From NCBI GenBank assembly GCA_965113315.1, contig OZ220365.1: a stretch of DNA of 64,000 bases; one strand, 5' to 3'. Shown one piece after another: positions 4,150-52,700 of this stretch. A model generated the notes under the pieces. It was not told the DNA's origin. It saw nothing but the letters and a program-made list of their open reading frames with translations, and did no database searches. The stretch comes from Podarcis vaucheri (Eukaryota). The first letter of the stretch is position 1; each line of letters starts with the position of its first letter. Made by a program: the position numbers and the translations under genes.

Positions 4150-4183
4150 TAATGCCTAGTTCTCTCGCTTGCAGCCTTTAAAT

Positions 4184-4739
4184 CAGTGTTTCCCAAACTT
4201 TTTTGGGCAACGGCACACCTGTTTACTGAAAAAAATCTCGCGGCACACCACCATTAAAGCCCCGCCCCGTGACGTCAGCGCGCAGCGTCACGCCGGGAGG
4301 GACCCACAAAAGTGAACGTTTTTTCCCTCCCCCTTGCCGGGGAACCTCCAAGCTTTGGGGGTGGGAGGAGGCAGCAGAGCGAGGGACTGAGGGACGGCAG
4401 CAACTGAGGCGGCGGCGGCTGTTGTGGTGGTGGTGGCGATAGCGGGCGGAGGAGGGGGCGGCGGCGGGGCTTGAGGAGCCGTCGCCGGGAGTTGCTGCTG
4501 TTGTTGCTGCTGCTGCCCGGACATGCCGGCCTCCTCCTCCTCCGCTGTCTCGCGCTCCTCCCTTTTGCACGCGCTGCCCCGCCGCTCGGCACCACCACCG
4601 CGGAGCCGCCCCCGGCTCGACGCGGATCCTCGCCGCCGCCACCTCTCACAGACCGACTCGCCCGCCTCCCTCCCACGGCACACCAGCCAATGTCTCACGG
4701 CACAGTAGTGTGCCGCGGAACACCGGTTGGGAAACACTG
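4184..4739. mobile_element. hAT (Charlie-like) MITE with a GC/CpG-rich, gene-like interior, copy 1
   Basis: TIR CAGTGTTTCCCAA / TTGGGAAACACTG; perfect 8-bp TSD CTTTAAAT. Confidence 0.93.
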
Positions 4740-4889
4740 CTTTAAATGAACACTTTCTATGTTCATTTAATTTTTCATGATAATTTTTCAAATATGATTA
4801 TTTACACTCCAAACTATGTGCACATAATTGCATTGTACCAAAAAGTTTTGGGATGTCAGTCTCTCCTTGTCTTCTGCTATAGTACATTA

Positions 4890-6132: not shown

Positions 6133-26680
<20,548 letters not shown>

Positions 26681-28720: not shown

Positions 28721-31700
28721 CTGAAACAGAAATGAACACATTGAGGAGACAAAAGGGCTGGATCTATAGGCAAGAATTTTAGATCTTGTTTCAAGCTAAG
28801 TGTTGTGCACTTGGTTTTGTGTGCTAAGCCTGATCTATTTTGCCTTGCACTGTATTTGTGTTGCATTTCAACACAAATACGCGGTGGCCCAAAAGTAGGT
28901 ATACTGCTTTAGAATCCATTTTCTTTGTACTTGACTCAAGTTTGCCGTCAGCATTCATAATAATCCTTTTATCTGACTCCACTATTATTTCTAAGTGCCA
29001 GCCTGAAATTTAACTGCAACTTTGTTGTGTGTCACCTATGTGTACCCAAATAATCTGTTGTGATGAATGTCATTGATTCAACTGTATACCTACTTTTGGG
29101 CCACCCTGTATAGTTAATACAGTTAGAAAATATCACCATCTACTATTAGTGTAAGGTAGTGGTAAAACTGTTTTTAATTCCTGAAGAGCTGTGATGTTCA
29201 AAATCACAAAATACTATGTTTTGTGTTTAATAATATAACTTCTATAAGATAACTACATCAAATATGCATCCATTAAATTCCATATTCTCTTGCTAGAATT
29301 CTTTCTCAAAACATTTATTGTATTCTGGATCTCAACACTTGTGTTCTTTCCCATAGCGTTAGGTCCTTTTCTGTGCACAGCCATCCAGCAGTATCTATCA
29401 AATGCTTAAAGGAGATAGACTGTATTTAGCAGCCTTACCCTTGAACTCCTATATAAAAAACCTTGTGTAACATACCCATTTTGAGGTCCTCCGTCATTGA
29501 CTACATTTAAGTGAGCCAATTGCCTCTTCAAGTGAAGTTTGTAGCTTGCATTAATTCTTAAAAACAACATCTAGAGAACAATATAGAAGTTCCTTTTTAG
29601 AATATATAGTAAGAACGTGAAAGGTTTTGTTCTCTTGAGGAGTGACTATGAAGAATACAGAAGACTCAACTTACGCTGAGGTTATGTTCTGGGGCTAGCG
29701 CGTAAAGCCAAAATTGTGTAATGTCAAAACACACTGGGTTCAGTGGTGGGTAGGATTGCCAAACTCTTCTTTTCCCATATGTCTGCCCCCTTATTTTTAT
29801 TTTATTGCCAAGCATATGTGTGCAAGTTAAATGCACTTAAGTTGTGAGTTGTACTCAGTTTCATGTACATACCCAACTTCGCATTTATGAGCCACTGTGC
29901 ACTTCCGCCAGCACAGAAATAATGAGCACTTCATAAATAATGGTTCCAGCATTTTTGTTTTTATTTTAAAAAACAACCCCCTAGTTCTCCATACTTTCCC
30001 CCGAACTGAAGGAATGGGTTTCCCAAACCCCTGTTTGGGGTTTCCTGGCCAACACACCAAGGCACAGGGAGGAGGGGCACTCTCCTCCCCCCCAATGGAG
30101 TTTGGGAAACCATGCTTAAGTATGGCATATACTTAAGTATGCTTAAGTATGGCATATTTTTTCATGATGTCATCTCACATAACAACTCTGCATGAATGGA
30201 CTGCGCCAAAGGTTAATAATATACAGCGGTGGTGTGAAGCTACTTATAGATGCTACAGTCCCACTTGGGGTGTGGCCATGGAGATATGGTTGTCGGTAGC
30301 TTTCACGTAGGGGCCATAATATTTAAACTAGTACCAAGAAATAGTTTACTTATTTTCTGATTCATGGGAATCTCCTTGCCCAAGCACACACAAACTTACA
30401 AGTAATAATTAATGAGGCAATATCTGCAATTAAATAGTATGTGTTACTTGTTTTAAATAGAAAGAGTCCATTACTTCTCCCATCCTGCCATACGAGACCT
30501 GGTGGGTTTGGCTCCCTCTAGCACTCGAGAGCAGGAATATACTTGCCTCTCAGGAACTTCTAACTAGCCCATTTCCAGAAGCAACCTCAGTCACTATTTC
30601 CACAGGTGGCAGCACACTACTCTGGGTCGCTGGCAAGACAATACCACCGGGCACTGCTTGCAACTGGAACTTTCTTCCATCTTTGTGTGGATCCTGTAAA
30701 CTTCTGATGGGTATTGGTAAGAGGACCCATGTGTGTGGGTTAACAAACAATAGGGAAATGGCTGGTGCCAGTTTTTAAAAACACGGGACTAGTGCATAAA
30801 GAGCCCCAGTAGCAGAGTTTAAATCTGGCATCAAGCAGATTAAAGAAGCACAGGATTGGGCTATTAAACCTTTTAATTCCATTCCTGCTGCTTGAGTCAA
30901 CTGGTCCCCTTCTACCCCACCCCATACAATGAAATAGACCACCCTCTGAAGTTAGTTTAAAAATGCTTTACTTAATCAAGTCACAGTCATGTAGCAACAT
31001 TAAGAAATGAAGATAATTGTTTTTGGGATGCTAAATACAGCAAAGGCAGCCTCAGACACACGAGGCATGTCTGCCTCCATTGTGTATGAGAAAGAGGGAG
31101 AGAAGAATATCTCTCCCATCACTGAACCTACTCTTTACTTACTAGCACAGTTAGGGTTGACTGCAGATCTCCCACAATTTCTTCCTTCTCTAACCTGGCA
31201 AAAAAACAAGAATGAGGTCGCTTCTGGGAAGGAGCTAGTTACAGGTTCCTAAGAGCCGAGTGCATTCCTGCCTTTGAATGCTAGGGGGAACCAGCCCACC
31301 TGGTTCAGCGTGACAACACAGAAATACCCAGTGGACCATTTCCCCGAGGCTATTAAAAGACTCCATAATTGAAGGCTTTACTTGCAGCCACATTTCAAAT
31401 GAGGTAAAGCTATTCCAATACTGATCTCTACTTTTTGAATATTTACTATTTATGTGTTACATAAAATAAGGAATAATTTACTTATGCATAGCGTTTTAAG
31501 CCAAGATCTTAAATAACATGAGATGTGATCCTCCTTGTATGAGTAATCAGCAAGTGTAGACTTCATTTGCAGATGCCTCTTCAACTATTGGGAGGATACG
31601 TGACACTCCTACAGCAGAAATAACACACCACTCAAAACGGTTCACCTGTGTTTGCTCCTCAGGAAGAAGGTCATATATTGCTTCATGCATCTTGGCCATC

Positions 31701-34700
31701 TGTTTACAAATATTCCTGAAGCAGGTGGAAGGAACAGGTGCTTTCACCTCATACTGTTAACAAAGACAGGGAATGTGTCACTAAATCATAGAATCATAGA
31801 GTTGGAAGAGACCACAAGGGCCATCGAGTCCAACCCCCTGCCAAGTTGTTTTCTGGCTGCTACTTTAAAAAACACTGGAAATTCATGGGTTGCCAGTTCA
31901 TTTCTGGGCCCAATCTAAAGAGGTGCTTATGTTGGCATTTTAAGCCCGAATGATTCAGGCCCCAAATATCTGAAGGACCACCCCCTCTCAGGTCTCCAGA
32001 TCAGCAGGGGGTGCCTGCTTGGTAGTTCTGCTGTCCACAGAAACTTGGGGTGGTGGCCCAGGAGAAGGCATTCTCTGTGGTAGGCCCTAGTTTGTAGAAC
32101 TCTCTCCTCAAAGCTGCGTCTGGCAACTTCAACACGTAGTTTTCAGTGAATGCTGAAGGCACACATCTTTACCTTGGCCTTTGACATCTGATAACCTTCC
32201 TAAGAGTTTCACCCTAAATCACCCCATTTTTGTGATTCTGGAGCCAGGTTCATCACAAGTAGATTGCTTTAAACTATTTTTAACATTGTATTTTAAATTA
32301 ATGTATCCAACCCCGAGACCCTAGTCTCAGCAGGAGTAATAATCTTTCTGCTGACTGGTTCAGTTTCTCATCATCAACTATGATTTGCTATACAGATGAT
32401 TTGTAATGTGCTAAAATTCTGAGCAGACAACTACCATAAAATATCTTATTTCCCAGCTGTTAAGAGAAACTGCCCCAAAGAACAGTATGTAAGTTTTCTG
32501 CAAATGCAAATACGATGCACAATAGAGATTACTTTATGTACATACAATATAGCTCAGCATGCAATGGGAGGGGCTGTTTGCATGGGGAACCTCACATGTA
32601 CACCTCTGCACACACAGAGTATGGGTTTGGAGTGGAACTGGATTCTTTTTTAAAGAATGTGATACTTCATGTATAAGGGAGGCACACCCGACCTTGCCTT
32701 ATGAGTTTGGGGTCCATATCTGGACATTTATTCTTTTATTTGCCAGTGAACTACTAATGTAACAAGTTAGCAAAATACTGCACAATGGACGTCTTGGAGC
32801 AATTATCTGATAAAACTTAGAGGTATCCTCTATAATTCTCTGCTAAGAATAACAATACTAAAAATAAGACATTTCAAACCAGAAAATTATTAGAAAAATA
32901 CCTTGCTAACATAGTCAAAATACCTAAGCATACTGAACTGCTAAGAAACAATAAGCACCTGAACAAGGAAAGTATTGTCCATGTCGCCACTGAGTATTCT
33001 ATATGAGCTGAAGAACTTAAACCTTTGTTAAGAAGCATGATTCTATCCGCAAATATTTACCTTAGAGAGCAGCTTGTCAAATAAGCTATCCATTATGGCT
33101 ACGAGCTTTGCTGAAATTTCAGCTATGTGGTCATGATAATCCTGAAAAGAATAGAATATTTATTATTTATATTTATGCAAGAGTCTGTCCTAAAGAGCCT
33201 ATCCAGGCATGAAGAAAAACAAAGATGACTACAATGCATTTGCCGCTGCTTTACATTTTTAATCAGCAATACTTACTTGTAAGGCGCCCACAAATGCCGG
33301 CTGTCCAATTAGTCTAGTCTACATTCGTCCTCACTACCAACACCTGTGGCAGTTGAGAGTTTTGGGAAAAGTCAAGAGATTTCCCTGACTTGTGCAACAG
33401 TATGAAGGTGAGGAAAAGCAATTTTTTCCCTTCTGCATGGAAGAAATTACATCTCTCTCAAGCCTATTACAGTTTCTTATCTTATCCAAATCTCCATGCA
33501 AATGAAACAAGACTTTGTCTTCCTCAATCCTTCTATATCAGTGGTTCACAATTAGCTAATTACTGAGGACCCCCTATTTTTCTATAGCCAAGCCACAGAC
33601 CCCCTACTTAGGAAAATTCTGATAACTCTGTGGTAGTTACCTGTGCAAAGCAATTATTTGAGGAAAATGTGGGGTAGCCTAGGGGATTTTAGCTTTACTA
33701 AAGGATTTTAGGTAAAATTTGTGATATTACCAAAAACTGCCTATCACCAGACAGCAGGAAAAACGTGTCCCCACTACAACTGATTTTTTAAAAAGGAATT
33801 GTGTCCCTAACTTGTACATGTTCTATATGCAGAAGGCTTTTTGTATGCTATTCCTTACTTCTAATCTGAAATGGTACATCTTAGCAAAATTTTGCAGCAT
33901 ATGGTTCTGCTAACTAAGGGATCTTGCACCTTCAAGACATAGGTGAAGGCTTGGTCAGGGCTTGATAAGGTATTGGGGAAGACTGAATGGAAAACAGCTG
34001 GAATGTTGGAATGTTGGTAGTAGTAGTATAGTAGTAGTAGTAGTAATTTATTACTGTTATTTAGTCCTCCTGTGCTCAGCTCATTAATCTCTTTGAGCTC
34101 TTGGCTCCCCTCCAGCTGGCGCTGGTAGCAGAGGAACTCAGGAGCTGCAGCAGTTTCACCAGCGATCTACCGCGGAGTGAAGCCACCATCCCACACTGCC
34201 CTCACACCGACAGAGGGAGAAACAAGTTGCATTGGCGAGGCACAAGACAGCTTCTTCCTCCCTCCACTTCTTTAAACTGCTCGGCGGAGGAGCATGCGAC
34301 TGCCCTTGCCTCAGCCAAGCAGTTTGATGGAGCCTCTAATTTGCCCCGGGCTCACATCAGCTGTTGGCAGGGTGGGGGCTCAAAGAAACTGCTCCACTGA
34401 AGGGTGGATGGTTGCCGCTCCCCTCAGCCGTGCAGTTAACGGAGCTTCCAGCCCCACTCTGGCTCATTCAGCTGAGGGACGAGAGGCTGAGCATTTCAGC
34501 AAAGCCCCAATGCTCCTCGGATCAAACATAAGCCCAAGAGGCATCGGAACTCGCTCACTGTGTAGGGGTGGGCCATGTTTCTCAGCTGCTTCTTACTTCC
34601 CTAAGGTGGGAAGAAGCAGCCAAGATAAATTTCAGACATAGTAATACATCAGCATATACCGGTATTTAAGGTAAAGGTAAAGGGACCCCTGACCATTAGG

Positions 34701-37700
34701 TCCAGTTGTGACTGACTCTGGGGTTGTGGCGCTCATCTCAGTTTATTGGCCAAGGGAGCCAGTGTACAGCTTCCGGGTCATGTGGCCAGCATGACTAAGC
34801 TGCTTCTGGCGAACCAGAGCAGCGCAGGGAAATGCCGTTTACCTTCCCGCCGGAGCGGTACCTATTTATCTACTTGCACTTTGACGTGCTTTCGAACTAC
34901 TAGGTTGGCAGGAGCAGGGACCGAGCAACGGGAGCTCACCCCGTCATGGGGATTTGAACCACCAACCTTCTGATCAGCAAGTCCTAGGCTCTATTAGCTA
35001 CTGATATATCACAATGTTGAAAAGAAAATATTGCCCAGCCATAGCACTAAACTAAATCATCAGAGGTTGAGCTGCTGTGGTAATCACAGTGGCAATGTGC
35101 TTAGCTATTTCCCCTGTTGGACTTCCAAGATGAGACATGAATCCCAAACTCATAAGGCAAGATTAACTGAAAACCGTACTACAAGAAGTGGGAGAGTCCT
35201 CTAAACTAAACTAGTTGTTGAAAGCAATTAGAAGTTCTTTTCAGTGAAAAAGTAGAGAGCAAGGGGGGAGGGATCCCTTACCTTTTTTAAAAATGATAAG
35301 CATGTGAGCTGCTTGCACTCTCTTCCCTCCTCCCTATGAAACTGTGCCAGAGGTTTTTGCCCAATCCCAGTTTACTTGCCATCCCCCAACCCTTTCACAA
35401 GTTTTTCCCCTCCCAGCAAGCAGGTGCTGGGTGGCCCCTGGAAGGCTTTCACTGTGCAGTTAACAAGATAAGCAAGTCCCTGGCCGGGGACGGTGCCATG
35501 GACCCCCTGAGTGTGTTCCGCAGACCCCCAGGGTTCCCCGGGCCCCTAATTGGGAACCACTGTTCTAGATGCTTAAAAGACAGCTTTTTCTCCCATGTAC
35601 AATGGAGTATGGAAGATGGGAGTTTAGAGAAAGGAAGCAAGAGCAGGTGGGACTGCGGCACAAAGGGAATCTGTTGGCAGTTGCTGGAATTGGTATTATG
35701 GATGTGAACTTATTCAGAAGAAAAGAAAAAGGTTTATGAGATCCTATAGCATCTATTCCCAGGACTGTCAATGAAGAAAGGCAGATGAGCAAAAGGACAT
35801 TCACATTGCACTGAGGTTATTACTATGCAACCACAGTAATGCACACCTCTAGGCTGGAACCACCAAAACGACGGCCCATGCAGGGAATGTAAAATGCATG
35901 CAGGTTTTTCTTACCTAATAACAACAACAATAGTAACAAGGTATTTCAATCCAGAAAATTATTAGAAAAATACCTTGGTAATGTGGTCAAAATGCCTAAG
36001 CATGCTGAACTGTTTGGGTTGCAGGCGAGCTTCAAAGTGAGCTCTGATAACAGGAATGTAGTGCACTATGAGCTGTAGGCAGCGTGATGAGAGGGCTGTG
36101 AAGACAGAGAAGAAAACAACACAGAAGAGCTATTACTATACTATGAGATCTTTTCCTATGCAAACTACAATAAAGAAAATATGCACAGCATTCTGCATGA
36201 GGAAATACTACTTTTATTTTAGAAATTCACCAACAGCATGTTCCTAAGGCTTACTGTGCCAGTACACAAAAGTTAATCAGAAGGCAGCTCTTTTTCATGA
36301 ACTGAATTTTAAAATATCTATTGCATGCTAGCTCCTTCACATACTGCCCATAAAAGAATTTGCAATACAACCACATTACAACCACAAAAATATGTTCTGG
36401 AAAAGCTGCCTACTCGAAGTTTCTTTAGAAAATTGAAAAGGGAATTTACATGACCATAGAAAGTTTAAGCCAAATCCGTACCTAAATTTTTTGTAGTTAT
36501 TGTTTTCAAGCCAACCACTTGCAGGGCACCTGCTCCAAGCACTAGCTGACAACTTCTTGAGTTGAAATACTGAGAAAGAGAGAAAGAGAGTAACACAGTG
36601 GCTGATGGGAATTGGGAGTCATGTTGTAGTTATCTTATGATCTTATAGACAAATTCATGGAAGATAAGGCTACAAGTCATGAGAGCTGTGCACCATCTCA
36701 GCATCCGAGGTAGCGTGTCTCCAAACACCAGTTGCTGGGGGGAAAGAGTGGGAGAGGAGAGGGCATAGTGAAAAACAGGTTGCTGCTTGACTGGAAAGTG
36801 CTTTAGTCTGACCCAGCTGGACTAAGTCCCCCAGAGCCTCTGGAGAGGGTTCTAGGAGTGTGGAGGAGAGACGTGAGCTTGAAAAGCCTCTTTCCATGAA
36901 CTGTTGTTCTAACATTCTTAGTGCAGATTCTGTATCATACAGGGTGGGGGGGACGGGACTAGATGAACACTGGGATCCCTTCCAACATTTATGATTCTCG
37001 CTTCCTCATGGAAAGCTAAGACAACAATTACCAAGTTCTTAGTTTTCTGAGACATGCAATGCCACAGTACTTATTTTATTCCAGCTAGATACTTGCAGAA
37101 ATCAGCACCTTAGTGCTAAAAAAGAAACAAACAACTCTTCCAAGAAACTGAAAATACTGGCCTTTATCAGCAGCATTAAGTCAAATGCTCTTTCAAAGCA
37201 CAAGGCAAGGCCTTTGAATTTGTTCAGTTATAGATTAAGTTATTCTTTGTTTTACTAATTTGTGGTTTAATCTCAGTGTCTGGAGCTGATCCAGCTGGCT
37301 GTGGGTTAGGAGCAGCACAAAAATTAATAATGACATTCAACAGGACGGAGGGAAGGCATATGGCTTAAATATCAAAGTCAACACTGGGAGTTGCTTGGCA
37401 TCCCACAAGGTGAAAAAATGAAGAGAAAGCTCTCTTACAAACTTTTGTGTGCATCAAAAAGAGTTCAAAGTCCTACACAAGTTTTCTGATGTTAACAGTT
37501 AAGCTATTTTCCTTGACCATACCTATTTATTTTCATAAAGCCATTTCATAAAAATATATTTTAAAAAGCAAGGTATATTCCCTGCATTTTAGGAAAGATC
37601 TGAGGGAGCTGTACCTTTAGTAAATCAGACAGACGGGTAAGCATGTCAGTAGCTATTGAGGGGATGCTGTCCACGCACTGGCAGTATTCAAGGATGATTC

Positions 37701-40700
37701 TAATTAGCAACAACACTGTCCTGCAAGACAAAGAATCAAAGATACACACTCAGACCACATGACAGACTGCAAGTCATCAAAACCTCTTTAAAAACACACT
37801 TCAACCTTTTCCTTCTCATCTTTTGCTATTAGCCAACACCATTGCCTGCCAATTTCTACTGTGGCTCCTGAATTCTACTTTCCAGGTGAGTTCAGCTCAT
37901 ATGCCATTGAATTAAATGGGGAAATTCTCACTGGCTTCAGTAGAGCTAGCTTATGGTCAGTGAAAGAGATGGTGCATTTTAGGGAAAGTCACAAATACCA
38001 ACTACCAATGTGTTTTTGACGGAGTAGGAGGGTGCAATTTTCTGCAGCAAAATGGTAAAAGATCTGAAGTTATTGCAATGAAGTATACTGCTGTGACTAC
38101 ACACACACACACACATACACACACACAGACTGCTCAGCAATTCTAAGAAGCCAACAGCAACCTATCCAAAATAGACAAAGCACTCCTCTATGACCTCTAG
38201 AACCATCCTGCCAAATTTGGTTAAGATATCTTAAGTGATGATTGAAAGCATAAGTGTTTAGATCAGTGTTTCCCAACCTTTTTTGGGCAACGGCACACCT
38301 GTTTAATGAAAAAAATCTCGCGGCACACCACCATTAAAGCCCCGCCCCGTGACGTCAGCGCGCAGCGTCACGCCGGGAGGGACGCACGAAAGTGAAAGTT
38401 TTTCCCCTCCCCCTTGCCGGGGAACCTCCAAGCTTTGGGGGTGGGAGGAGGCAGCAGAGCGAGGGACTGAGGGACGGCGGCAACTGAGGCGGCGGCGGCT
38501 GTTGTGGTGGTGGCGGCGATAGCGGGCGGAGGAGGGGGCGGCGGCGGGGCTTGAGGAGCCGTCGCCGGGAGTTGCTGCTGCTGTTGTTGCTGCTGCTGCC
38601 CGGACATGCCGGCCTCCTCCTCCTCCGCTGTCTCGCGCTCCTCCCTTTTGCACGCGCTGCCCCGCCGCTCGGCACCACCACCGCGGAGCCGCCCCCGGCT
38701 CGGTGCGGATCCTCGCCGCCGCCGCCTCTCACCGCCCGACTCGCCCGCCTCCCTCCCACGGCACACCAGCCAGCGTCTCACGGCACAGTAGTGTGCCGCG
38801 GAACACCGGTTGGGAAACACTGGTTTAGATAGACAAACAAAATTTCAAAATATACAGGAGATTGGTGGAGTGGTTAGAGTGTCGGACTAGGAACTGGGAG
38901 AGCAGGGTTCAAGTCCTCACTCGGACATTAATTCCATTGATTGATCTTGGGCCAGTCACTGTCTCTTAGCATAACCTACCTTACAGAGTAAGGGGGTGTA
39001 CCATATACACCACCTTGAGCAACTTGGGAGGAAGAGGACATAAATATAACAATATAAAAAGGGAATCCAGCATTAACAGTACAATCTTCAGCTAAAACAT
39101 AAAAATACTAATGCATACCAGTTTCTCTTGTTTTACATTCTAGAGGCTCAACCCAGAAAAAAAACAGGCATCAAAGTTAATCAACCACTTTCATTTGTTG
39201 ATCAATTCACTTTTAGAGAAATCATATAAATTTACTTCTTCTTCTTTTAAATATTCCTACTCTTACTTAATTATTGCTATCCCAACTGTACATTGGGGTC
39301 AGAGCAGCAACATCAATTAGATGAATTTTTTTTAAAAAATCTTATTTTTGAATCTTTCTTTTTACTAGCATTTCCTAAACATTAAGTTCAGAGCACACAG
39401 CAGAGACCTAAAACAGAAATACTGGTGTCGTATGTACCATATAATATCTCTGGCTACTGATTTTGGAGGAACCCAAATTATCACATGATGAGATCAAAAG
39501 AAAGAAAACAAACATTTGACTGAAATTTGCTGAGGATTTTAAAAAGGGAATTATATGCAGGAGACTTACTCGGGAGTTTTCCTCAACTTTCACAAAAACT
39601 AATAAATATTTTAATATTCAAAAGTGAACTTGCCATGATGGGGAACACACATGTCTTACCCAACTACAGCATATTTTTGTCCATCAACAACAAGGAAGTC
39701 AGTTGGCTTTCTTTCTTCAGGTGCTAAAACAATTGAATAAAAAAGGAGGGGGGATCTAAAATTAAAAACAACACAAATAACACTGCAACTGTCTCTTTAA
39801 AAAAAGGCCCAGGGATGAAAATTACCCTGTTCTTTACTCCTCCATTTCCACTTTATAACACTGGCATGCAGTCCGTGAAGCGGAGGGACTAGCTTGGTCC
39901 CCCGGCGCATGCTCAGGTGCAGAGGGAAGCAGGTTCTTCAACAGAGTCCCTCTATGTACTTTACAATGCAGAGGCGCAAGGCATGCTCTTAGTCAGAAAG
40001 TATGGACAGGGGCTCAGCTGAAGAACCCGCTTCCCTCCATGCACCGCCCACGCAACTTGTAGCACACAGGATTCTCTCACAAACATTGGGTGGGGGGCAT
40101 GTTCCCTTCAGGCGCCTGCTGCTCGCAACTATCCACATCAGCAAAAACTGGGAATTCGGGGGGGGGGGGTCATTAACTTCCAGCCACTTCTGTTGGACTG
40201 AATTCCCAGCGACCCCTTTCTTCCTACTCAGGAGGGTGAAACAGGCAAGTTTGAGGGGATATGTAGCTAAGAAGAGTCGGGGAAGGAGGACACAGCAGCC
40301 TTGGATGGCGGAGAAGGTTGCAGGGAAGCCCCAAGAGTGGGTGGTCTGGGTGGGGGAGAGAGAGTGTGTGCACAGGGAAAACCAAATCCTGCTTCAGATG
40401 GCTTGTTTTGGTTCAGAATTTTGCTTCCATTTGGATCGAAGTGGAACCTTGCTTTGGTTTGTTTTCTGAAGCTTTGAATGTCTTCTCCACTGATAAAGCA
40501 GAGAAAAAGAAAGAAACAGAAGGAAGTGGTAGTGTTGGTCAAGGGAATTCCTGTCCCGTGGACGGGCAGGCAGTCCTCTTCTGACCAATGAGCATGCTGC
40601 AAGTGGGCTGACATGGGAGCTCCAGTCTCTTTGCCGTATGAAGGTTTGTTTTGTTTTGGGCCGCTCCAGCTGCTGCCATTAAGCGAGCCAGGATAGATTC

Positions 40701-49700: not shown

Positions 49701-52700
49701 AGTATATCTATTCTTTGGGCTTTGTATAACTCATGATAGAGAAAGAAAACCGGTTTAGATACCTGGAAATATCAGAAGACCTGAAGACATACATAAAACC
49801 AGTGCTTTTTTTCTGGGGGGACGAATACCCCTAAACATTTTGTGAAACTATGTACTTTTTTCCATTTCCTGTATTTATTTTTCCCAATTTGAACTATAAA
49901 ATGGTGATTTTCTTGAATCAAAATGAGAGTACCCCTAAATTTTTCTTTTTAGAAAAAAGCACAAAAAAACACAAAACATTTAACTACAATATATGTGAAA
50001 GGTAAATATCCCTCAAAAATAAATTACCTGTTTAATTATATTTTTTGCCGTTACAATAATTTCATCTCCATATATTTCAAAAAAATTCAATTTCCTTTGT
50101 TTTAGAAGTCCAAACACTAAAGATACAAGCCTTTCCTATTTAGAAAAAAAAACAAGAATAAAGATCACATGTGAAAGAAAGGTAATCAGAACTCAAATGG
50201 CAGATTAGAACCTAACTAGTGCAGATAAATTAACATGCTAAATAGCAAATCTGTTGGAAAGTACAATAGGAGTTAGTCTCTGTACTATTAAGGTCAAGGT
50301 TTGATTCTGGCCCGGCAGAAATTATTGGCTGCTGTAGAAGCCATGTGCTACAGATGTATACTTTGCATTCATCCCCACATACTACACACAGAAGCTAGTT
50401 CTGCTAAGGACAATACAAGGTACGTATTTGTGCCTTCCATGAATGAAGGAGTGGACAGGTGGTATGCATTATGACACAGCTGAGAAATAAAAAAGAATTG
50501 AATGGGAAATGCCAAAATTAATGCTTTCAAATCACTGAGAGGATTCAAGATGTGTTGGTGAAAATTCATTTTGTAGAGGAGAAGTGAATGGAATAGGCAT
50601 TGACAGCAGTGTGTTCTGTTCTATGTCCTGAGAGGTAATTAGACCGCAAAAAGCCTTCTAAATGGGGAGTACTGTACCTCTTCCAGAATCTGGCATTCTT
50701 CTTCCAGAGGTCTATTTAAGTCACTGTGAGCATAGGTAGAAAACTCTGCAATCATCATTTTATCTATGAGTTTTTCTAATTCACATAGCTGTGATCCAAG
50801 ATGCCTGTTGAAGAAAAAAATGTGTGAAAAAGTTAAAATAATTATGGGAGGGAGCATGAAAGTGCCATTATCTAAATATCAGGAAAATATGGGGATGTAT
50901 AACTATCATCTGGGTAATTTCTACACAATAAATAAAGGACACTGAATACAGTTTATTTACGTTATGTCTTCCTTTGCAGCAAAAGAAAAAAAAAACACTT
51001 TTAAATTCCACTGTGACATTAATGTCAGACATCTCCATGAAAAGAGAACAATTTGCAATAAAATATGCATTCTAATTACACACTTCGTGAATAACCAAAG
51101 ACTCTGGAGAATTCAGCAGTCATGGGAGATGTTGACAGGTCCTCTTAGGGATCAGTAGCTGGCTAAAAAACAGGAAATAGAGGGCAAGAGTAAACTGACT
51201 TCTAACAGTGGAGGTATGCATGGAGTAATGCTTCCCCAAAGATATTTATTGAGGTGAGAGCTATCTATTTTTTTCAATAAAGAGATGGAGTCAGAAGGGG
51301 CAGTGAGAAGACCAAGTTTGTAGACTGCAAGGAGATCTAAAAGGATTTCTAAAATCTGGGCAAATGGAAAACAAAAAGGTAAATAAGAACCAACGCATGG
51401 AGAACAAATCTAAAGGGGCACAATTATAAGTCCAGCAAGAGAGCATCACGGGAATAAAAAAACTGAGCTCCATTCAATGACTATTAGAAAAGCGCTTAAC
51501 ACCCTGACACAAATCTAAGGGAAAGAAACATCTGGAGCACTAGACTGATTTCTGTTCGACGTATCTCAAAAAGGATGACTATCTTCACTCTAAGAAAGGC
51601 TTAGAAACAGGGTTTCTCAAACACCTGAACCCTGGATGAGCTTATGAAGTTCTCATTGACCCAGTGTAAATGAATAAAGTGAGGAAAAACACCTATAGAC
51701 AATTTTTTTAGCAGCAAAGCAGCACAGTCTGAGAATATGGTTGTATTGTGGAATCATCTTGTTCAATACAGAGGTTCCTCACTGGCAAGGGATGCTCACT
51801 CTGCGCATGACATGCCCTTTTCTGCAAGCTTCTTTTCCACCCCTAATTCATTTTGAGCCATAGGTCTTTATTCACTCCTTGCACAGCCCCATCAAGCCCA
51901 GGAGTCATTATCAGCCACTTTGGGAAACCCTGGACTAAAATATAAAGGACCTTTTAGTCTAGAAAACAAGATGTTTTTGGAGGGAGGAGTGTGACAGTGC
52001 TTTATTAAATTATGGATGGTGTGGAGGAAAATAAACAAAGACAACTTTCCACCTTCTCTCATAATACTAGGTGACCTGTACTCAACCATTGATCTTGATT
52101 GGCCTATATTTAGGACAGAGAGGAAGGGCAGTCTGAATACCCTTTACTTTTGCATTTATGTGGTGTACAACTATTAATGTAAATAAGAATTCGCACTATA
52201 TCAAGGATACTTTTAGGGCCTTTTAAAAAACCTGACTAATTACATTCTCACTGGACACTAATATACTGTAATATAATTAACAATATAGTAAATTAGTTCA
52301 ACTCAATAACATATATAAAGATACCACTTATAGGTGGTATGCAGCCAAGCTTTACTCACTTAGTCGTATCCATTAATTTCAACAGCTCTACTCTGAGTTA
52401 AATTTAGTTGAATACCAACTTAGATCTGCATGAACTAGATATCCCTTGAAACTGATCATAATAATTTTATATGTGATTACGAATTTCTACTGGAATGTCA
52501 AATGTCACCTACCGGAAGCTGTGAATGCCCTGGAGCTCCTGCTGTAGCACCTCTTGTGTTGTTGCTATCAAGTCTAACGCTCCAACAAATTCAGAAGTAG
52601 ACAGCAATAGTTGGACAGTAGGTTGTGTTTGGTGCACTGTTGCCATTAACTTCAGTTTATTATATGCTTTTATACAGTTATTTCTAGTCAATGATAATCT

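Follow-up and report, generated by a model that had tools for sequence, protein, structure and literature searches.

A partial copy of VPS54 exon 19 in intron 20 of Podarcis vaucheri: probably a silent pseudo-exon, and likely an old repair scar

Introduction

Intron 20 of VPS54 in the lizard Podarcis vaucheri contains what looks like the end of an exon, an altered copy of the last codons of exon 19 that has acceptor-like sequence before it and a donor behind it, and the question that it raises is whether the spliceosome makes any use of it. The initial annotation proposed a ready-made cassette exon, in frame or poisonous depending on the acceptor, and kept a silent relic as its fallback. We followed this proposal up in the window (the whole 64,000-nt stretch of DNA analysed), in the rest of the genome, in RNA of a close relative and in VPS54 proteins of other animals. 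In our judgement the copy is quite probably a silent pseudo-exon, one that normal splicing passes over. Our literature search found no paper on this VPS54 element, on alternative splicing of VPS54 exon 20, on a VPS54 poison exon or on VPS54 in Podarcis; the papers on partial exon duplication that it did find do not concern VPS54.

The copy and its source in VPS54

Podarcis raffonei VPS54 maps on the window in 22 coding exons, whose product of 977 residues matches the query at 972 of 977 positions. The exon numbering used here assumes a single untranslated first exon, and it agrees with the available text of PMC10094427, where mouse VPS54 codon 967 falls in exon 23. Exon 19 (35974..36095, minus strand, residues 808-848), exon 20 (33061..33141, minus strand, residues 849-875) and exon 21 (31646..31753, minus strand, residues 876-911) all end in phase 0, and this mapping bears out the earlier statement that exon 20 ends and exon 21 starts in that phase.

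The copy lies at 32843..32940 on the minus strand and comprises 39 nt from the end of exon 19, the donor and 59 nt of intron; its source, at 35915..36012 on the same strand, is the final 13 codons of exon 19 with the first 59 nt of intron 19. In a self-comparison of the window the two align ungapped over 98 nt, with 82 of 98 positions identical (83.7%) and E = 1e-24, and are therefore alike far beyond chance. They are 2,975 nt apart, and a search of the animal's own whole genome (1.61 Gb) matched the copy in two places only, itself and its source. A lenient gapped alignment that ran past the 98 nt of the copy proved to be noise.

The exon-derived part (32902..32940, minus strand) differs at 6 positions from the closing 39 nt of exon 19 (36012-35974), which changes QFSMLRHFDHITK to QFSMLRYFDYVSK, and the copied donor AAGgtattt (32896..32904, minus strand) is unchanged, within a run of 27 identical nucleotides. 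The letters and coordinates quoted in the initial annotation all proved correct when checked on the minus strand, including the 13 copied codons with their six differences and the retained donor. Its estimate of about 30 nt of copied intron was too short, the measured length being 59 nt within a whole copy of 98 nt, and its description does not mention a direct repeat that flanks the copy. The left arm of this repeat (32938..32953, minus strand) contains what had been called a NAGNAG acceptor, the right arm (32840..32857, minus strand) a second NAGNAG-like site, and the core TTCTTAGCAG stands without a mismatch in each of them (32947-32938 and 32849-32840).

Three acceptors could open an exon that closes at the copied donor. 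The upstream CAG at 32958 gives a candidate pseudo-exon of 57 nt (32902..32958, minus strand) that reads VLIVS and then meets an in-frame TAG at 32943-32941, and this form is a predicted NMD target. The acceptors at 32940 and 32937 give candidate pseudo-exons of 39 nt and 36 nt, which would add 13 or 12 residues in frame. These reading-frame outcomes had all been predicted correctly.

RNA and protein evidence for use of the copy

If the copy were an exon, reads should join it to its neighbours. We mapped four raw RNA runs of a close relative (~2% diverged, word share 0.55) on positions 31600-33250 and looked for the proposed junctions from 33061 to 32958, 32940 or 32937 and from 32902 to 31753. 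None appeared among the 27 junction reads, all of which join exon 20 directly to exon 21 (7 and 20 reads in two bulk runs). Depth is zero from 32328 to 33055 in all four runs, and so over both candidate pseudo-exons, while exon bins reach 7-17x in the two bulk runs; among the joints and insertions listed for this stretch, none involves the copy or its letters. The two single-cell runs have no depth on exons 20 and 21 and are uninformative. A cassette exon is defined by reads across its junctions, and in the relative's RNA examined the copy has none.

With zero of 27 reads, inclusion is at most about 10.5% at the 95% level (5.5% if two junctions are counted), a bound that applies to a related species, to 6-12% of each run, to unstated tissue, to steady-state RNA without NMD block and to a mapped stretch that leaves exon 19 outside. 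Steady-state RNA hides NMD targets, and none of the 24 RNA runs listed is described as NMD-blocked. The relative itself should carry the copy, because the age of the copy, 0.18 substitutions per site, is about nine times the species gap of ~0.02. A rare, tissue-specific or NMD-hidden form may exist beneath RNA that is shallow, from another species and at steady state.

Protein records give the same answer. The residues of the copy occur in 0 of the 260 proteins of the VPS54 search, of which 201 pass directly from exon 20 to exon 21, 8 skip exon 21, 25 run into intron or unrelated sequence and 26 lack the end of exon 20. Searching with the frame from exon 20 into the copy put three proteins at the top; they come from other animals, read through into an intron and do not contain the copy. 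Three flags for copy residues raised by a loose pattern were false. Seventeen of the records are lacertid, from four species, and include forms that skip exon 20 and exon 22; annotation is therefore sensitive to in-frame variants, and it says little on poison forms.

These minor forms deserve a description of their own. Of 163 VPS54 protein records, 11 (3 of Podarcis muralis and 8 of birds) leave out exon 20 and keep the frame, which removes 27 residues from a long helix and makes this a minor isoform common to lizards and birds. Skipping of exon 22 (29570-29476, 95 nt) shifts the frame of exon 23 (28720-28640), and the resulting tail, beginning IGYSRC, is found in records of Podarcis, Rhineura, Pogona and kiwi without the normal C-terminus, Leu967 included. 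Terminating in the last exon, this form is predicted to escape NMD.

Selection on the copy

A coding sequence under constraint should have changed more slowly than the intron copied with it. Copy and source differ at 6 of 39 positions in the exon part and at 10 of 59 in the intron part (Fisher P = 1), with transitions making up 11 of the 16 changes, and outside the 27-nt run the decay stands at 16%, the comparison being that of copy with source only. Within the exon part 4 changes are non-synonymous (30.6 sites) and 2 synonymous (8.4 sites), for which P = 0.38 under neutrality, six changes giving little power; pN/pS is 0.55, below 1 but not significantly so, and pS is inflated by the source's own silent changes. 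The exon part has decayed as fast as the intron part, and there is no sign of purifying selection.

The replacements themselves are foreign to VPS54. Among 163 full-length proteins (of 172, the 9 under 600 aa being left out), none has the Y842, Y845, V846 or S847 of the copy; every one of the 162 proteins that cover the real segment has H842, H845 and I846, and S never occurs at 847. Constraint is hinted at in one place only, the 27-nt identical run over the donor, with P = 0.057 under random placement and 0.01-0.10 under assumed per-lineage rates. Survival of the 9-nt donor by chance has a probability of 0.2-0.5, which is unremarkable, and the case was picked for its donor.

Splice signals

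We scored splice sites with matrices built from the 21 introns of VPS54 itself, a crude model. The acceptors at 32958, 32940 and 32937 score 4.7, 7.1 and 8.1 bits and so outscore 5, 12 and 15 of the 21 real sites, respectively; the copied donor, at 6.9 bits, outscores 10 of 21 real donors. On this model the splice sites of the copy would be usable in principle, within the range of real VPS54 sites, and here the scores favour the initial annotation. They do not favour its choice of the upstream CAG as the stronger acceptor, which is the lowest of the three on this crude matrix (4.7 vs 7.1 and 8.1 bits); nor is the pyrimidine tract of that CAG stronger, with 12 pyrimidines in -20..-4 vs 11 and 12 for the other two.

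Such scores are common in this gene. Over 29 kb of VPS54 introns, 14 AG-GT pairs of 30-200 nt (at 12 donors, that of the copy included) score like the 39-nt form, and 30 pairs equal the scores of the 57-nt form. The acceptor at 32958 has an AG-free zone of 31 nt before it, and another AG separates it from the nearest yTnAy, 46 nt upstream; the in-frame acceptors have their sole yTnAy 12-15 nt away and an AG 18 nt upstream. Branch-point placement for the acceptors of the copy therefore looks poor, which is weak evidence because a strict yTnAy within 17-45 nt is present in no more than 8 of the 21 real introns. One of the copy-source differences, gc to gt, makes a competing donor-like site inside the copy, TAGgtattt (32918..32926, minus strand), at 6.1 bits vs 6.9 for the copied donor.

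Possible functions weighed

What the earlier proposal said of anatomy and frame has stood, but nothing points to use, with 0 of 27 junction reads, 0 of 260 proteins and no sign of purifying selection. Its fallback, the silent relic, is now better supported than exon use, and its acceptor can be explained as the target site of an insertion.

Function could still be argued for in several ways. The most far-reaching would be that a repair scar, falling on an acceptor-like target with a donor of its own, made a whole exon in one step, and that this exon now serves as a low-level lacertid switch in which the 57-nt poison form is set against the 36/39-nt form, tuning VPS54 dose in nerve or testis; we regard this as unlikely. 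If inclusion were true, a regulatory exon would have arisen at a single stroke in the wobbler mouse gene, a trafficking gene sensitive to dose, and its origin could be dated across lacertids.

To us it is a poor prospect that the repair copy now acts at a low level as a poison element, either as the 57-nt exon or as an extension of exon 20, and sends VPS54 RNA to NMD in some tissue or condition. The stop of the 57-nt form lies 242 nt before the last junction, on the far side of the 50-55 nt criterion for NMD; the splice sites are plausible, including the 31-nt AG-free zone before 32958; and the decay of the amino acids would be irrelevant to a poison exon, whose RNA would be depleted unless NMD was blocked. 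The level of VPS54 also matters in the wobbler mouse, according to the available text of PMC10094427. If the copied donor were instead an alternative end of exon 20, an option that the initial annotation does not name, the extension would be 240 nt long with three stops. However, no read of the close relative supports that end, and both the copy and the stretch of intron that separates it from exon 20 are free of reads. The acceptor that this idea needs, 32958, is the weakest of the three, its nearest yTnAy is the distant one behind another AG, and its scores are those of 30 other AG-GT pairs. The 27-nt unchanged run over the donor would fit a poison element, but conservation ends with that run and is not significant.

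We give very little credence to a functional, tissue-restricted in-frame cassette of 36/39 nt that would add 12-13 residues where the long helix gives way to the KYEVKAP loop, or would replace exon 20. The frame is kept, the two acceptors score 7.1 and 8.1 bits, and splicing here is loose, as the 11 of 163 proteins that skip exon 20 show, three of them from Podarcis muralis. In a low-confidence model (H838-875, loop 876-883, mean pLDDT 36) a helix also ends where exon 20 meets exon 21, and 12-13 extra residues there are predicted to lengthen the loop or the helix end. Against this stand the 0 of 27 junction reads in the close relative and the 0 of 260 proteins, four residue changes that the real segment never has, a yTnAy only 12-15 nt from the acceptors with an AG 18 nt upstream, and a competing GT within the exon. 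The solved mouse VPS54 fragment 3N1B spans residues 836-974; in the available text of PMC10094427 it is a helical bundle whose stability sets the VPS54 level. That 3N1B starts at Q836, the first copied codon, we treat as coincidence.

Origin of the copy

A silent pseudo-exon leaves the question of why an unselected copy should look so much like an exon, and the flanking repeat suggests an answer. The two occurrences of TTCTTAGCAG are spaced by exactly 98 nt, the length of the copy, and the word is rare, with 2 occurrences in the window and 3 in 264 kb. Of 20,000 anchors placed at random, 35 gave a match of at least 10 letters on such a diagonal, as did 16 of 10,000 matched for GC (~0.2% by chance), and the repeat lengthens to 16-18 nt if one 2-nt indel is allowed. 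Source and target also share CAG at the left junction and TTAG, with 12 of 15 letters, at the right junction; the last 15 nt of the copy fit the source (3 changes) about as well as they fit the target (one 2-nt indel). No poly(A) or poly(T) tract is present in the junction letters at the ends of the copy, and intron sequence is included; spliced RNA was therefore not the template.

Collapsing the repeat yields a plausible empty site. The NAGNAG acceptor is, on this comparison of letters, one arm of a putative duplicated target site; the other arm, further downstream, reaches comparable scores (6.0 and 9.8 bits) and has no exon behind it. The copy would then look like an exon, though unselected, because its target was a T-rich tract ending in TAGCAG and because a real donor was copied with it.

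Proximal repair-mediated duplications are defined by a set of criteria against which the copy can be placed. It is at least 50 bp long (98 nt), it is two-copy, and its donor is less than 5 kb and more than 50 bp away; it has no poly(A) or poly(T), and it bears the marks of microhomology and target duplication. It passes four of the five criteria; for the fifth, an empty site in an outgroup, collapsing the flanking repeat gives a predicted sequence. We consider it likely that this 98-nt local copy of the exon 19/intron 19 boundary is an old scar of double-strand-break repair.

If so, the break would have fallen in intron 20 near ttcttagcag, and one broken end would have invaded the same chromosome 3 kb off, at the CAG that it shared with exon 19. 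The invading end would have copied about 80-98 nt and left the template where the intron-19 sequence (tattgtt...ttag) resembles the target, and re-annealing would have doubled 10-18 nt of that target. Such a pathway would be synthesis-dependent strand annealing of the class "microhomology plus target duplication", presumably followed by neutral decay to about 0.18 substitutions per site between copy and source.

The copy would be equally silent if a LINE reverse transcriptase had made it from unspliced VPS54 RNA at a nick in the same locus, an origin that we think improbable. A target duplication of 10-18 nt, a 3' end of the copy that resembles the start of the target and 3 nt of homology at the 5' junction would all fit, since target-primed reverse transcription is compatible with such duplications and junction homologies, and the copy runs in the orientation of the transcript. 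Yet it has no poly(A) or LINE tail, and its source is 3 kb away, in the range where, according to the available text of PMC2671141, none of the 39 inspected cases bears marks of retrotransposition and 3 of the 39 are of the "MH+TSD" class. It is scarcely credible that exon 19-exon 20 was once duplicated in tandem over a greater length and that the copy is all that survives: the orientation and downstream position are as expected, but similarity ends sharply on both sides, no second exon 20 and no further intron-19 match were found, and the spacing of the flanking direct repeat equals the length of the copy exactly.

Comparison with known duplications

An old scar of break repair would have counterparts in other genomes. 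The survey of Pace, Sen, Batzer and Feschotte (2009, PMC2671141), as its available text reports, found 824 proximal duplications within 5 kb, with a mean of 162 bp; the 39 inspected show no poly(A), 4 of the 824 donors are classed as "partial exon/intron", and the two full exons examined show no coding constraint. The VPS54 copy is like these in being at least 50 bp long and two-copy, in having its donor 50 bp-5 kb off, and in combining absent poly(A) with microhomology and target duplication. The duplications in that text lie inside transposons of mammals, chicken and zebrafish, and for many of them a relative shows the empty site, whereas the VPS54 copy is in unique intron DNA of a lizard, with an empty site deduced from the repeat, an acceptor-like target and the sense direction. 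As read, it is one more repair-mediated duplication, in squamates, a group outside the defining survey, and a clear case of a repair junction mimicking an acceptor, so that a scar resembles a ready exon.

Unannotated tandem exon duplicates, as covered in the available text of Ivanov and Pervouchine (2022, PMC9013439), are likewise exon homologs within the same gene, at ~80% identity, and unannotated intronic homologs there cover about 2% of human exonic nucleotides. Unlike those duplicates, the VPS54 copy has only the 3' third of its exon, no acceptor of its own and no junction support. It shares with the mutually exclusive SCN exons 5a/5b an exon-derived duplicate near its source; in the available text of that study (bioRxiv 10.1101/2025.08.16.670673) those duplicates are whole, adjacent, conserved and spliced, unlike the VPS54 copy, which is partial, has exon 20 between it and its source, and has decayed codons and no reads. 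We ruled out a mutually exclusive duplicated exon, as 39 of 122 nt were copied, without the source acceptor and with exon 20 intervening.

Other duplications and repeats

Across the 264 kb examined there are 34 locally two-copy pairs, 6 of them 1-4 kb apart; genome-wide copy number was determined for these 6. Two of them are two-copy genome-wide, the VPS54 copy and an 82-nt inverted pair, and the other 4 are repeats. With a second proximal pair that is two-copy genome-wide, the process therefore acts in this genome, and the VPS54 event is not unique. The inverted pair (L003:2349-2430 and G000:C17:126160841-126160916, in the neighbouring 200 kb) has its members 2.4 kb apart at 89% identity and, to judge from these features, is probably another repair-mediated duplication.

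Younger repeats are also present. Direct-repeat pairs at L011:156-540 (385 nt, 99.7%) and L021:8302-8626 (325 nt, 100%) are spaced about 3.2-3.6 kb apart, and many similarly spaced pairs occur elsewhere in the genome; these would likely be the terminal repeats of young, short LTR-type elements. A GC-rich repeat of 574 nt at 38257-38830 and 4177-4747 of the window (96% identical), one copy of which is in VPS54 intron 16, is a young, high-copy element: the genome holds 2,425 candidate matches, and all 40 that were scored (40 of 40) stand at 97-100%. A 448-nt pair at 13193-13640 and 51404-51851, 38 kb apart, is 100% identical. Intron 20 itself holds a 65-nt high-copy repeat tail at 31781-31851, on which many RNA reads that stem from other places map, as well as an older element of 300-400 nt at 31888-32310, at about 70% identity. 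On the opposite strand, convergent with VPS54, positions 21560-21838 (plus strand) encode an exon of UTP-glucose-1-phosphate uridylyltransferase (Pfam UDPGP), a gene that we take to be UGP2.
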